64,000 nt of DNA from an uncultured Gemmatimonadales bacterium. Lineage in GTDB: Bacteria > Gemmatimonadota > Gemmatimonadetes > Gemmatimonadales > Gemmatimonadaceae. Where the stretch lies: positions 256,001 to 320,000 of the forward strand of contig CAWKNZ010000007.1 of NCBI GenBank assembly GCA_963851265.1. Reading direction: 5' to 3'. Position numbers: made by a program. The stretch's first letter is position 1; every line of letters starts with the position of its first letter. This document shows positions 12,001-21,000 of the stretch, piece by piece.

Positions 12001-15000
12001 CCCGCCGCCGAGGGCGAGCGCGATCATGCCGGGGATGATCACGAGGAACGGGAAGAACATCTTCGGCACCGCCGCGATGAGCGGCGTGCGGCGCGCGGCG
12101 GTCATCGAGTCGGCGGCCATGGCGCGCTGGACGACGAGGAAGTCGGTGCACCAGTAGCCGAACGACAGTACGAACCCGAGCCCCGCGACGAGGCCGAACG
12201 CTTCGACGCCGATGGGGTTCGTCGACGCGTGGGTCATCCCCTGCCAGACGTGGGTGAACGCGCCGGGCGCGTACCCGCGCGCCGCGGCCTGCACGGTGAG
12301 CCGCGCCGTGAGTCCGTCCCAGCCGCCCACCGACCGGAGTCCGAGCCAGACGAGGGGGGCGAAGCCGAACGCGATCATGAAGAACTGCAGCACCTCGTTG
12401 TAGATCGCACTCGTGAGACCGCCGGCGAACACGTAGGCGAGCACGATGGCGGCCGACACCCACACGCTCGTGTCGAAGCTCCACCCGAGCAGCAGGTTGA
12501 AGAGCTTGCCCATCGCGTACATCGAGATTCCCGACGAGAGGATCGTCATGATGGCGAACGTGCCCGCGTTCAGCGTGCGCGTCTTCTCGTCGAAGCGCAA
12601 CTTGAGGTACTCGGGCACCGAACGGGCGCGCGAGCCGTAGTAGAACGGCATCATGAACAGCGCGACGAACACCATCGCCGGGATCGCGCCGATCCAGTAG
12701 AAGTGCGCCGTCGCGATGCCGTACTTGGCGCCGGACGCGCCCATCCCGATCACTTCCTGCGCGCCGAGGTTGGCGGAGAGGAAGGCGAGGCCGGTCACCC
12801 AGGGGGGAAGCGACCGGCCGGAGATGAGGAAGTCCGTGCTCGTCCTCGCCGAGCGACGCAGGGCGAAGCCGATGCCGAGCACGACGGCGAAGTACGCCGC
12901 CATGATGACGTAGTCGATGAACGTGAGGTTCGCGATCGGGGCGTGGTTCACGAGGGCTCCGAAACGGTGCGGCGGCGGGGGCGGCCGCGGGGTGGAGGCG
13001 GGGCTGCTGCAGAGGTCGCGCCGGGGGCGCGGTGCCCGGCAACATAATGGTCGCGCACCGCGGAAGCGGTCGGTCCGTGACGCCTTGTGCGCCGGCGATC
13101 TTCGCCGGCGCACCCGCTCAGCGCTCGAACATCCCCTTACGCACGGCAGCGCCGCCGCGGACGTGCCACACGCCGCGCGCCATCACGTCGCGCACCGCGC
13201 CGTCAGGGTCGAGCACGACGAGGTCCGCGTCGCCCCCGACCGCGACGGCGCCCTTCCGGGGCAGGCGCAGCAGCGCCGCCACGTTGGACGTGAACGGCGC
13301 GAGCGCGCTGCCTAACGGAACGCCCCGGGCGAGCAGCGCGCGGAGCACGCCGGCGATCGCGCCAACGTCGCCGACGCCCATGCGCGTCATCTGTCCCTGC
13401 GCGTCGAACACGGGCAGGCTGCCGCCGCCGTCCGAGCTGACCGTGACGCGCTCGGGCGGCGCGCCGCTCGCCCAGTAGCGGACGAGGGCCTCGTCGGCCG
13501 AGTACTCGTCGCCGTGCGGGGCCGGGAAGGCCGTGAGGTCGACCGTGCAGCCCCGCCGCGCGAGCGCGACGGCCTCCTCGAACAGCGCGCGGCGCCGGTT
13601 GACGTGCGTCGGGTTGAACACGCGCGCGGGGATCTCGCTGCGGTCGAGCGCCTCGCGCACGAGCGCGAGCCCGCGCGGACCGTCACCGAGGTGCAGGTGC
13701 ACGACGCCGGCCTTCCGCGTCATCAGTCCCGCCACGTGCGCCTCGGCGGCGAGCTTCACCAGTTCGTCGTACGTCGGCTGGCTGGAGCGGTGATCGCTCA
13801 GCGCGACCTCGCCGACGCCGATGATCCGATCCACGTTCACCATGTCGCCCCGCACGCTCCCCGTGACAGTAGCGGGCGGCACGTGGTAGCCGCCGGTGTG
13901 GCACCACGCCGACAGCCCGTCGTCGACGAGCGCACGGGCGGTGGCGACGAGGCCGATCGGGCCGCGCGTGTAGTCGTCGGTCCCGAGCACGCCCACCGCG
14001 GTGGTCACGCCGCCGAGCGTGAAGAGCGAGAGCGGGATCGGGGGTACGCGGGTCTGCGGACCGGCCTCGCCGCCGCCGCCGGTCAGGTGCACGTGGGCGT
14101 CGATGAACCCGGGGACGAGCCGCGCGCCGTGCAGATCGACCTCCTCGGCGCCGAGCTCGGCGGGGAGCGTCGCGAGGTCCGCGCCCATCCAGACGACGCG
14201 CTCGGCGGCGACGAGCACGTGATGCCGGCCGAGCGAGGCGGGGGCGTAGACGTCCGCATTGCGGAGCAGCGTCAGCATGTGGACATGGTAGCGGGGCCAC
14301 CCGTCCAGGGGTTCCCCGGCGCGCTAGCGTTCGACCCGTATGCCCGCCCATCGCTTCTCCAAGGCCGCCGCCCGCGGCTGGCTCGTCCCAATTGGGGGCG
14401 GCCTCGCCGATCCGGCCATCTTCGAGCGGTTCGTCGAACTGTGCGGCGGGTCGGGCGCGCGTCTCGTCGTGGTCCCCGTCGCGTCGAGCCTGCCGCGGAC
14501 CGGGCACGAGTACGCAGACGCGCTCCGACGCCACGGCGCGAGCGCGGTCGCGGTGCTCGACGTGCGCACGCGGTCCGACAGCGAGAACCCCGACGCGCTC
14601 GCCGCGGTAGAGCGCGCCGACGGCGTCTTCTTCACCGGTGGCGACCAGGTGCGCCTTGCGGAGGTGCTCGGCGGGACGCCGATCGCCCGCGTGCTGCGGC
14701 GGCGGTGGGCGGAGAGCGAGTTGCCAGTGGCCGGCACGAGTGCGGGCGCGTCGTACCTGAGCGAACGGATGATCGCACGGGGCTGGTCGGGCCCGCGCCC
14801 GCGCGCTGGGATGGTCACGCTCATCACGGGACTGGGGCTCGCGACCGACCTCGTGATCGATCAGCACTTCCGCGAGCGGCGGCGCCTGGGACGGCTGCTG
14901 ACGGCCGTCGCGCTCGAGCCCGAATGCCTGGGCGTCGGCGTGGACGAGAACACGGCCGCGTTCATCGCGCCCGACGGCGAAGCGACCGTGGTCGGGGCGG

Positions 15001-18000: not shown

Positions 18001-21000
18001 GAGGGCATGCCGCCCGCGCCCGCCGTGACGGCCCCGCGCGCCGCGCCGCACGACGTCGCGCCCGCGGACGAGGCGGCACCGCCCGTTCCGAACGCGCTGG
18101 CGGTCGGGCCGCCAAACGGCGACGGCGCGACCACGCGCTACCGGCGCGACGCGCGCGGCGTGATCGTCGCGCGTGACGAGTCCGACGACTAACGATCGTG
18201 CGGACGCGACACGCCGAGGTGGCGTTCGGGCGCCCCTCGGTGAGCGCGTGACGCCGCCGCCCGTGCCACCCCAGGCGGAAGCTCGTCGCGTGCCCGGGCC
18301 GAGCGTGTACGCGTTCGAGCCCGGTGCGGTGATCGAGGCGACGTGGCCGGCGGGCACGCCCGTCGACGTACTCGAGCGTCACGGCGCGGCGTTCCAGCGC
18401 GAGGCGCACCGGCTGCGCGAGCGGCTGGGCTGGCCGGCATCGTCCGTGGTCGAGCGGGTGAGCGCGGGCGTCGCGGGTCCGCACCTCGCGTCGTTCCTGC
18501 CCGCGCCGCCCGACCAGCTCGACGCGGCGGTGGAAGCCGCCGAGCTCGCGTGGCAGGTCGCGTCGGGAACGCCGGCGCCAGCCGCGGCCGTCGAGGCGCT
18601 CGTCACGGCGGCCGCTCGCGCGCGCGACCCGCGACTGGTCGCCCTGCTCGACGCGGCCGACCGGCGTGGGCTCGTCGCGACCGTGGACGACGACGGCGTG
18701 AGCGTCGGGGCGGGGGCGCGCGGGCGCACGTGGCCGCGCGGCGGGCTCCCCGACCCCGAGCGGGTGGAGTGGGACGCGGTCGGCAACGTGCCGCTCGCGC
18801 TCGTGACGGGCTCCAATGGCAAGACGACGGTGACGCGCCTCGCGGCCGCGATGCTGCGCGCCGCCGGACACACCGTCGGCGCGTGCACGACCGACGGCGT
18901 GCGCGTCGACGCGCCCGACGCGGCAGCTGGCGCGGTGCACGCCGAGTTGGAAGCGGGTGACTGGGCCGGCCCCGGGGGCGCGCGCCGCGTGCTGCGAGAC
19001 GCGCGCGTGACCGCGGCGGTGCTCGAGACGGCGCGCGGCGGCCTGCTGCGGCGCGGCCTCGCGGTGCGCCTCGCGACCGCCGCCGTGGTGACCAACGTCG
19101 CCGCCGACCACCTCGGCGAGTACGGGATCGAGGACGTCGACGGGGTCGCGGAGGTGAAGCTGACGGTCGCGCGCGCGCTCCGCGACGCGCGCGCGACGCT
19201 CGTCGTCTCGGCCGACGATCCGGTGCTCGCGCGGCGCGCGGCTGCGCTCGCGCGCGGCGGACCGTTCGGCGTGTGCTGGACCGCCGCGGGTGCGGCGGGC
19301 GCGGCGCTCGCGGCCGAGCTCGCGGCCGCGCCCGGCACCCGCGCGCGCGCCTGCATCACGCGCGAACGCGACGGCGTCGAGGAGATCGCGTGGTACGACG
19401 GGGCGACGTGGGCGCCGCTCGCGCGCGTGGCGGACGTGCCGCTCGCCGCGGGCGGCGCGGCGCGGCACAACGTCGCCAACGCGCTGAGCGCCGCCGCGCT
19501 GGCCTTCGCGCTAGGCGTTCCCGCGGCCGCCGTGCGGCGCGGCCTCACGACGTTCGGGGCTGGCGCGCGCGACAACCCGGGCCGGCTCGAGCGCTTCGCG
19601 CTCGGAGGCGCGACTGTCGTGGTCGACTACGCGCACAACCCCGACGGGCTCGCCGCACTCCACGCGGCCACGCGCGCGCTCCCCGCCGCGCGCCGGCTGG
19701 TGCTCCTCGGTCAGGCGGGCGACCGCGACGACGCCGCGCTCGACGCGCTCGCGGCCGCCGCGTGGGGCGACGGCGCGGTCGCCCACGTGGTCCTCAAGGA
19801 GCTGCCGACGATGGCGCGCGGGCGGGCACCGGGCGAGGTGCGCGCCCGCTTGCGGTCGGCACTCGCCCGCGCCGGCGCCCCGGCGGCGGCGGTCGACGAC
19901 GCACGGTCCGAGGTCGACGGCGTGCGGACGGCGCTCGCGTGGGCGCGCCCGGGTGACGTGCTGCTCCTTCCGCTTCACGAGGAGCGCGAGCGTGTGGTAC
20001 GCTGGATCGCGCGACTCGCGGCGTCGGGTTGGCGCGCCGGGGATCCGGTTCCCGACGACTGAGGTCATCCAGCGCCCGGCCCACGCCGCGGTCGAACTCG
20101 CCGGCCGCCGTCGCCGGCTCGTCAGCGCGACGTGCGAAGCGCCGTCGCGGCAGCCGCGTCGGTCGTCTGGGTTGCCGACGTCGGGGCAGCGGCAGCCGGT
20201 GCGGCGGGCGCGGGCGCGTTCGGCACGGCGGTCGTCGCGTGCGCCGCTGCGGGCGCCTTCGGCCGGAGCACGACGTAGAGCCCGAGTCCGAGGGCGAGCA
20301 GGACGACGAGATTGATGGCGGCGACGACCGCGAACGGGATCGGGGGTTTCGGGTTCGCGGCGGCGAGCGCCGGCCGAGGCGCCGGCGAATCGTCGCGCCG
20401 CGTGGGGGGTGTCTGCCGGGACGTGCGCGGCGCGCGGCGGCGGGCAGCCGAGGCTGGGGCGGAGCGCGCGGCGCCCGCCGGCCTGGCGGCGAACACGCCC
20501 GTCGCGTCCGACGCCGCGCCGGACGGGGCCGGCAGGCCGGGCAGTGGGAAAGCCTCGGCGAACGGCAGGTGCGCCGGTGACGTCTCGAGATTCAACCGCC
20601 CGCCGGAGAGGTACAGACGCGTGAATCCTCCCGACGCTCCGTCGCCGCCGACGGTGAACTCCACGGCCTGCGGCGGGTCCGCGTCGGCGTCCAGGTCGAG
20701 CGTATCGGCCGTGGGCGATTCGGCGGTGATCGCCGTGGCGTCGCGCGGGGCGGTGCCGGACGCGGCGTTCGCGTCGTCGCCGGCGCGCTCGGCCACCCAC
20801 GCCGGAAACGAGTGCAGGCCGCCCAGGTACTCGGTGACGACGGCGTACCCGGTCGGCAGCGTCGCCGTCTCGAGTACGCGCGCCCTTTCGGCGTCGGCCA
20901 GGCGTGTCACGCTGCGGCTCAGCGCGTCGACGAAGGCGGGGCTCGCGTCCTCCACCACGTGGACCATCACCGAGCGCCCGGTCGTGACCTCCTGCGCGTC

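Follow-up and report, generated by a model that had tools for sequence, protein, structure and literature searches.

To our knowledge, biosynthesis of the nitrogen-storage polymer cyanophycin is taught as the work of one enzyme, CphA1, of which a single reduced variant, CphA2, is recognized. According to the available sections of two reports, CphA1 binds the cyanophycin chain between its N domain and its Mcore (PMC9427784), roles have been assigned to individual M-domain residues (PMC9427784 and PMC9262961), and a Cx19HxxEH primer-making site is found in 83% of CphA1 enzymes (PMC9262961). For CphA2, the available part of a third report describes an active G domain alongside an M domain that is truncated and inactive (PMC10273328). 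Here, we describe a CphA paralogue, termed X, that lacks the ATP-grasp core of the G domain and is encoded in a window of 64,000 nucleotides from a contig of an uncultured Gemmatimonadales bacterium; all positions are those of this window.

The locus comprises iadA, encoding an isoaspartyl dipeptidase of 386 aa (13118 to 14278, minus strand; TIGR01975, 403.8 bits, cut-off 331.25), and, on the plus strand, cphB for a cyanophycinase of 307 aa (14340 to 15263; TIGR02069, 214.4 bits, cut-off 126.6), cphA for a full N-G-M cyanophycin synthetase of 965 aa (15295 to 18192; TIGR02068, 1100 bits, cut-off 850) and the gene for X (18248 to 20062). The first-pass annotation had presented X as the fourth gene of an iadA-cphB-cphA1-X operon; because iadA is divergent, X is instead the third gene of a co-oriented cphB-cphA-X run. 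Elsewhere, iadA is co-oriented in 17 of the 18 loci that show it, and a scan of 12900 to 20400 for promoters and terminators detected none. The CphA of the window carries the Cys..HxxEH zinc motif as well as the ATP-grasp motifs and ends in a C-terminal tail specific to its clade; its nearest solved relatives are the Tatumella morbirosei and Acinetobacter baylyi enzymes (about 1000 bits for PDB entries 7LGN and 7LGM vs about 700 for cyanobacterial CphA1). X is single in this genome; a second cphA-cphB-iadA cluster, on contig C9, indeed has no X nearby.

The open frame downstream of cphA runs from 18173 to 20062 on the plus strand. The database gene call (P0005, 590 aa), which the first-pass annotation adopted, starts at 18290 and omits an Arg-Arg pair (RR) that is invariant at the N terminus of the family; the GTG at 18248, giving 604 aa, is supported by the closest relative, P0006, and is the probable start. 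Pfam recognizes Mur_ligase_M and Mur_ligase_C in X and no ATP-grasp domain, and the match to TIGR02068 (281.4 bits) falls below the cut-off of 850. As first reported, X aligns over the M domain only, both with solved CphA1 sequences and with the CphA of the window (BLAST, 38% identity over 425 columns, CphA residues 496 to 897). The median distance from start to P-loop is 179 aa in X relatives vs 498 in CphA, and two G-domain motifs occur in 0 of 347 relatives. X is thus a CphA paralogue from which the ATP-grasp core has been excised, in agreement with the derivation originally proposed, and would have arisen by internal deletion from an N-G-M cyanophycin synthetase; backbone extension by a protein with no G domain is not expected. 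An AlphaFold2 model of 18260 to 20059 (pLDDT 95.7) superposes 552 of 600 residues on the CphA1 structure 7WAE (TeCphA1) at 3.1 Å (Z 36.5), with the N and M domains packed as in CphA1.

Ahead of the M domain lie two inherited segments with approximate limits: a degenerate CphA N domain of beta-beta-alpha-beta-beta-alpha order (18248 to 18625, plus strand), which has the invariant RR (84 of 84 rows) and no Cx19HxxEH zinc site, and a G-domain remnant (18626 to 18784, plus strand) consisting of the first helix and the three-strand Gcore sheet joined to the G-to-M linker. Folded alone, the N region reached a pLDDT of 96.0, and all nine of its Foldseek matches at E ≤ 0.001 were CphA1. The top two VIA matches were CphA2 (Z 9.1, rmsd 4.9, 158 residues aligned) and CphA1 (Z 7.7), modest values against a background reaching 7.4; residues 1 to 170 of X spanned 3 to 483 of 7LGM and 11 to 469 of 7TA5. 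Positions of about 118 to 157 in the family HMM match the start of the G domain in neighbouring CphAs. The homology is visible in fold searches only: a PDB sequence search with the N region returned no CphA among its matches, and hhalign against CphA, a weak sequence-profile test here, gave probabilities of 0.9 to 2%, with 20 shuffles giving at most 0.5%. An Atlas look-up with residues 1 to 180 gave best scores below 0.9; a set with the name Cyanophycin_syn, which scored 0.79, serves as a lead only. Of 347 relatives, 2 have HxxEH in the N region and 1 has it together with an upstream Cys. The front 175 or so residues are therefore no new module: as modelled, they match the N domain of CphA together with the two ends of its G domain. 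The 160-aa N region of the earlier account is folded, as it stated, and the view that it is unrelated to CphA is not supported.

The MurE-like M domain (Mcore and Mlid, 18785 to 20011, plus strand) contains the P-loop (18809 to 18829), LETARGG (19022 to 19042) and Asp-His (19106 to 19111) motifs, together with the lid Arg and His. The retention of P-loop, LETARGG and DHLG that had been noted extends across the family: the M catalytic motifs are present in 337 to 346 of 347 full-length relatives, with an average identity of about 51% between their M domains. Among 291 X M domains, the P-loop Lys, the Mg ligands, the Asp-His pair and the lid Arg and His are 98 to 100% conserved, with the exception of the second Mg-ligand Thr (Thr 84%, Ser 15%). 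Such conservation suggests that X is likely an active side-chain ligase. Cyanophycin would be held between X's N domain and its Mcore, the free beta-carboxyl of the C-terminal Asp would be activated as an acyl-phosphate, as by the CphA1 M domain, and an ATP-dependent amide bond would be made to an amino acid.

Orthologues exist, as had been claimed, and the count of 8 of 60 genomes understates their spread: 47 of 200 genomes of the same phylum carry X, all 47 have a cphA, and the two are adjacent in 45. In a synteny sample of 80 loci, four of which were cut by contig ends, X lies directly behind cphA in all 76 with the X start in view, which bears out the adjacency first described, and the RR motif lies a median of 36 nt past the cphA stop (72 loci). 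A cphB is present at 49 of the 54 X loci with enough upstream DNA, and the cphB-cphA-X run is found in cultured, non-pathogenic strains; orthologues of X occur in Ruegeria sp. AD91A, Shinella zoogloeoides ATCC 19623, Dokdonella sp. MW10 and Pseudoxanthomonas mexicana. The neighbours include no conserved fifth gene and none supplying a special substrate. That X forms a conserved family of its own is borne out by a 36-row M-domain tree, in which a 100/100 branch separates it from all other rows. In the free tree, X falls outside the entire set of 24 full-length CphA M domains, and an AU test did not reject its grouping with the neighbour CphA clade (p 0.107); an earlier tree including MurE had a long-branch problem. 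The family is apparently unstudied as well as widely conserved; a literature search, covering parts of the papers found, yielded none on a G-less CphA, and earlier cataloguing is possible. A Deinococcus "Mur ligase family protein" of 724 aa, considered as a further X, is a different protein with a partial G deletion.

X accompanies one CphA clade, two members of which (G783 and G1026) have no X; its benefit is therefore conditional, and by this comparison X would be an accessory enzyme without which cyanophycin can be made in the ordinary way. Because the same two members have the C-terminal tail, the idea that the tail is a docking peptide for X is weakened, and the tail is better regarded as a clade mark. 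The tie of X to CphA extends to one natural fusion (P0127, 2 members), in which X is joined to the M domain of a CphA; a weak search for fusions of 992 to 2830 aa found none, and a complex prediction that paired X with the CphA G domain of the window scored 0.00, which speaks neither way. The fusion and the dispensability of X in some genomes, together with the part of Gcore that is kept, Gcore forming the CphA dimer interface in the available part of PMC9427784, would suit a mainly structural or regulatory protein that has little net catalytic activity, binds CphA or the granule and acts as a sensor of ATP or of an amino acid. However, most of Gcore is deleted, and near-invariant catalytic residues in 291 to 347 diverse sequences would be unusual for a pseudo-enzyme, making such a role improbable.

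If X is an active ligase, as we favour, the Mlid loops bear on the residue that it adds. The pocket for the incoming amino acid was placed by motif analogy to MurE and is hence presumed; it comprises the GDR loop, the KE..RGR loop and the last-strand His (19718 to 19978, plus strand). For Staphylococcus aureus MurE, the available part of PMC3829189 reports that acids on the two matching loops hold the side chain of lysine, although it gives pool size more weight than the pocket in the choice of lysine. At GDR+4, Asp accounts for 100% and 88% of two CphA groups and X has Ala 38/Asp 28/Glu 11; the position before RGR is Asp in 100% and 81% of those groups and Met, Leu or Ile in X; and a last-strand position is Asp in 94% and 79% and His in 81 to 84% of X. 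The acidic residues are present in all four solved, arginine-adding CphA1 sequences as aligned. With three presumed arginine-pocket acids replaced, a non-arginine ligase is favoured, and on this analogy the residue added by X is probably not arginine; the amino acid would have a neutral or acidic side chain, or the choice would be relaxed.

An auxiliary arginine (or lysine) ligase, completing released chains with a bare-Asp end or speeding up synthesis through extra M sites in trans, deserves weight, if rather unlikely in our estimate. X has the catalytic set and N-M geometry of CphA1, CphA domains complement one another in trans in vitro (PMC9262961, in the part available), and coupling to cphA is tight. 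Both lid Arg residues are retained, and the KE-loop acid is kept (Glu 71%, Asp 18%; 176 of 291 rows), so that this conserved Glu could still bind a guanidinium group. Yet the three acids lost in X are kept by all sampled CphA groups, and X would be superfluous as another arginine ligase, since the M domain of the partner CphA is intact and a close relative of that enzyme alone in E. coli makes a polymer that is 93.9% Asp-Arg.

The acceptor may differ too, as the X-specific invariant residues (the N-terminal RR, the second Arg of LRRG and the Glu after DHxG) lie on the presumed acceptor side. X might then use free Asp or a short peptide, giving beta-Asp-Xaa dipeptides or primers, or the alpha-carboxyl of arginine side chains, giving longer branches much as MurF follows MurE. 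An old change of function would fit the M-domain identities (35.5% to the neighbour CphA clade and 35.7% to other CphAs), but the LETARGG Arg and the polymer-positioning N domain are kept, and all 55 partner CphAs examined already have the primer-making motif (51 matched the pattern and 4 had a longer spacer), so we regard another acceptor as unlikely. Some Mur ligases are reversible, and X, sitting between synthesis and breakdown genes, could run the M reaction backwards with ADP and phosphate, stripping terminal side chains to release the amino acid and regain ATP. Breakdown is already covered by CphB and IadA, however, the substrates would be chain ends only, and the altered pocket fits arginine release poorly; we consider reversal very improbable.

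Our leading, if tentative, reading remains that X is an active ligase adding a probably non-arginine residue to the C-terminal Asp of cyanophycin. In one outcome, X would install a variant side chain and CphA would go on to extend it; in the other, it would add an end cap by which the chain is stopped or marked. The broader proposition, that X is a dedicated third kind of cyanophycin synthetase in a widespread non-cyanobacterial group, installing a non-arginine side chain or end cap such that the native polymer is chemically unlike textbook cyanophycin, is more doubtful. Were a non-arginine residue or cap confirmed, X would represent an undescribed step setting polymer composition, solubility or length, and would provide a stand-alone side-chain ligase for engineering and a route to side-chain-tailored polyaspartamides. 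In any event, X is a conserved M-only counterpart coupled to one CphA clade, among whose members are the closest relatives of the A. baylyi and T. morbirosei enzymes used in biotechnology, and it is a simple G-free protein in which to view how the M domain binds the incoming amino acid.

Compared with CphA1 (TIGR02068; 7LG5, 7LGQ, 7WAE, 7LGM and 7LGN), X shares the N fold, the MurE-like catalytic M domain, the N-M packing and the gene neighbourhood, but has lost about 320 residues from the ATP-grasp G domain, is without the zinc primer-making motif and has an altered lid pocket. The tandem CphA-like pairs of Burkholderiaceae and relatives, which we take to be CphA3/CphA3', resemble cphA-X in having two CphA-like genes in tandem; in the loci examined, however, the match to CphA takes in the G domain for both genes, and the tree places their M domains with those of full-length CphAs and away from X. 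DUF4938 (PF16292) is probably a related G-less architecture, judged by a weak match of P0059 (residues 14 to 189 vs profile positions 9 to 187, E 2e-6). Matches over the N region, G remnant and M start were found for 4 of 84 N regions, none in the window's X, and the best relative reached 27.6 bits against a Pfam gathering score of 32; the 302-position profile is too short for a whole M domain, and 121 genomes searched contained no true member. MurE shares with X the central and C-terminal domains, the P-loop, the GDR loop and the loop of the last strand, but X is without the UDP-sugar-binding N domain and DNPR, has a CphA-type N region and scores 83.4 bits against TIGR01085 (cut-off 257.3); the genome's own MurE is on contig C2. 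CphA2 (7TA5 and 8FXH) likewise derives from CphA1, retains a single catalytic domain and has an N domain that is not catalytic, but it is cyanobacterial, unlike the host of X, and what remains is opposite: in X the G core is deleted and M is complete, whereas in CphA2 the G domain stays active and M is truncated and inactive (PMC10273328, in the part available), so that the description of X as a mirror image of CphA2 is a fair one.

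In the window, intact iadA (13118-14278, minus strand), cphB (14340-15263, plus strand) and cphA (15295-18192, plus strand), each above its NCBIfam cut-off, are accompanied by an intact plus-strand gene after cphA, which encodes a CphA paralogue lacking the G (ATP-grasp, backbone) domain. The first-pass annotation placed all of them in a four-gene iadA-cphB-cphA1 operon ending in this gene, but iadA is divergent, so that description is wrong for this genome, in which the paralogue is third in a cphB-cphA-paralogue run. The same annotation reported a second cphA-cphB-iadA cluster on contig C9 without the paralogue, and indeed none occurs within C9:30000-47000; the genome has one copy, whose nearest named relative (72%) comes from a Gemmatimonadetes bacterium. 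The 590-residue database model (from 18290) starts downstream of an RR motif that all 84 N-region rows, 84 of 84, share without change. The closest relative starts ten residues ahead of this motif, matching GTG 18248, and from the sequence a 604-residue protein beginning there is likely; an AlphaFold model including the motif has a pLDDT of 95.7. The adjoining open reading frames (20122-21252, minus strand, 376 residues; 21966-23249, plus strand, 427 residues) have no Pfam family and were not found among the conserved neighbors of the paralogue. CphB, 307 residues long, continues beyond the end of its TIGR02069 match (residue 231) in an Arg/Pro-rich C-terminal extension of about 75 residues (15030-15263).

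As first proposed, the BLAST match to the window's CphA is confined to the MurE-like, side-chain-adding M domain (38%, 425 columns), and Pfam finds Mur_ligase_M and Mur_ligase_C with no ATP-grasp match; the TIGR02068 score is 281 bits against a cut-off of 850, and the median distance from N terminus to P-loop is 179 residues versus 498 in 55 CphAs. From the first strand on, 552 of the 600 residues of the whole model align with CphA1 of T. erythraeum at 3.1 A. Modeled alone (170 residues, pLDDT 96.0), the N region gave nine Foldseek hits at E<=0.001, to CphA1 only, and VIA (48,161 chains) ranked CphA2 and CphA1 top with Z of 9.1 and 7.7, unrelated folds reaching 7.4; the VIA alignment spans the N domain through the end of the G domain. 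Sequence profiles alone did not show N-domain homology. In neighboring CphAs, the family profile also matches the G domain at its first helix and sheet. Since this remnant falls within the stretch common to CphA and GshAB-type ATP-grasp proteins (matches from CphA 167-175), we infer that the paralogue arose via deletion from an N-G-M protein and did not predate the G domain. The paralogue lacks the zinc motif with which CphA1 makes primers, according to the available part of PMC9262961; the motif occurs in 2 of 347 relatives.

Those 347 are the unique, full-length members of 365 sequences examined. None has the two ATP-grasp motifs, and the M-domain motifs noted earlier are kept almost throughout (P-loop in 345, ExARGG in 344, DHxG in 337), as are those of the lid and loops (DxxHN in 346, GDR in 343, RGR in 345). 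They cover residues tied to TeCphA1 M-domain activity (PMC9427784, section 10) and the Asp-His pair whose mutation inactivated SuCphA1 M, in the available part of PMC9262961. Because such motifs are kept at a mean pairwise identity of only about 51% (40 rows), the sequences point to an active enzyme; a structural or regulatory role is thus quite improbable, and operation in the reverse direction seems more improbable still.

What such an enzyme would add was approached through M domains of 291 paralogues, 99 CphAs of the clade whose genes adjoin it (the neighbor clade) and 59 other CphAs, motif-anchored counts resting on 176-248 of the 291 paralogue rows. An Asp four residues past GDR (100% of the neighbor clade, 88% of other CphAs) is Ala in 38%, Asp in 28% and Glu in 11% of paralogues; the Asp preceding RGR (100% and 81%) is Met, Leu or Ile; and His stands in 81-84% of paralogues in place of the Asp of the last strand (94% and 79%). 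GDRR has likewise lost its second Arg, and the four solved CphA1 sequences carry the lid acids. Because these acids are replaced, and acids on two matching loops of Staphylococcus aureus MurE hold the lysine side chain (PMC3829189, in part; loops matched via the window genome's own MurE), the analogy suggests an incoming residue other than arginine. Against this count a conserved Glu still in the pocket, the analogical nature of the mapping, and the abstract of PMC3829189, which credits the lysine choice of MurE largely to pool size; an extra arginine ligase is conceivable, though we consider it rather unlikely. The partner CphA is closely related to T. morbirosei CphA1, which by itself in E. 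coli yields a polymer that is 93.9% Asp-Arg in the available text of 10.1101/2023.01.09.523336, so the paralogue is not required for arginine addition. We tentatively favor, short of regarding it as probable, a ligase that would use ATP to join an amino acid other than arginine to the beta-carboxyl of an aspartate at the C terminus of cyanophycin, producing either a variant unit or a cap. Beyond architecture and conservation, every step of this scheme is an inference, and use of a different acceptor is an unlikely alternative.

Among 200 genomes of the phylum, 57 had a match and 47 the paralogue (45 by score, and one each from two further searches), all 47 with cphA; it adjoins cphA in 45, is separated from it by another cphA in one and lies at another contig's end in one. 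At L130 (G019:C4:14000-30000), an other-clade cphA in reverse orientation lies between the two. The 10 matched genomes without it, nine judged from one protein query, hold other CphA types (nine 42-48% and one 56% identical to the window's). The best 80 of 352 genome loci include 76 that show the start of the paralogue, and in all 76 it directly follows cphA; where the upstream DNA suffices, cphB is present at 49 of 54 loci and iadA at 18 of 52. Named hosts include Gemmatimonadaceae, Lysobacterales, Steroidobacteraceae, Rubrivivax and Roseovarius, with plasmid copies in Ruegeria and Shinella and proteins labeled Acidobacteria, Myxococcales and SAR324. Of 401 Pseudomonadota genomes, at least 27 have cphA and at least three the paralogue, these three being those whose CphA shares 60% identity or more with that of the window; among 350 Gammaproteobacteria, five of the seven with this CphA type have it. 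It is missing from G783 (one contig) and G1026, genomes with neighbor-clade CphAs, and therefore belongs to a single CphA clade, from which it can be lost. The genomes in all these sets are kin rather than independent trials. Clusters at 50% identity that score above 535 bits number at least 150 and are mostly full length. In an M-domain tree of 12 paralogues and 24 CphAs (36 rows, MurE excluded as a long branch), the paralogues form one side of a 100/100 branch; they are equally distant from the neighbor clade (35.5%) and other CphAs (35.7%), and by sequence they are an old, distinct family, for which grouping with the neighbor clade is compatible with the AU test (not rejected, p 0.107).

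Several related arrangements were seen. Two 972-residue proteins that make up one cluster (P0127 / P0296; contigs of 84 and 48 kb) consist of a CphA M domain joined to a complete paralogue. In nine of the best 80 of 352 loci (Lysobacterales; L036, for example L036:6104-8374, L040, L044, L048, L051, L052, L062, L074 and L098), a DUF559 endonuclease cassette of about 175 residues interrupts the paralogue in frame after the N-domain helix, flanked by inverted repeats, and L069 retains only a remnant of the repeat; the cassette is a repeat-bounded element tolerated within a conserved enzyme. Neighbor-clade CphAs, including those without the paralogue, finish with a variable linker of 35-100 residues that carries a conserved acidic motif, RD[E/A]RG..ExxD, at the very end (window 18139-18189), a tail not found in other CphA groups. 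A different cphA clade of this phylum has, at seven loci (L119-L124, L127), a stand-alone CphA N-domain gene of about 130 residues between cphA and cphB, which could encode a separate primer-making peptidase. L197 (G809:C8:6000-21421) has three divergent cphA-like genes within 10 kb (817-867 residues) without the zinc motif, and a 724-residue CphA derivative on Deinococcus deserti plasmid 3 (L202:4023-6197), without CphA residues ~236-438, is an independent partial G-domain loss.

Literature searches, confined to papers without their supplements, found none on a G-less CphA of this kind; the available parts of a bioinformatic study surveying cyanophycin clusters (PMC10206079) and of PMC5178258 contain, respectively, no mention of it and nothing bearing on it, and the family is apparently uncharacterized so far. 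Database labels of its members are "Mur ligase family protein," "cyanophycin synthetase" and "UDP-N-acetylmuramyl tripeptide synthase." CphA2 is defined in PMC10273328 (in part), and a Mur-family phylogeny, as far as its available text goes, groups with CphA two divergent sequences that bear the tags MurE and MurF (10.1101/2022.11.30.518518; PMC11915815). The paralogue is a real, widespread variant within a known enzyme family, and the Pfam family DUF4938 is weakly related to it.
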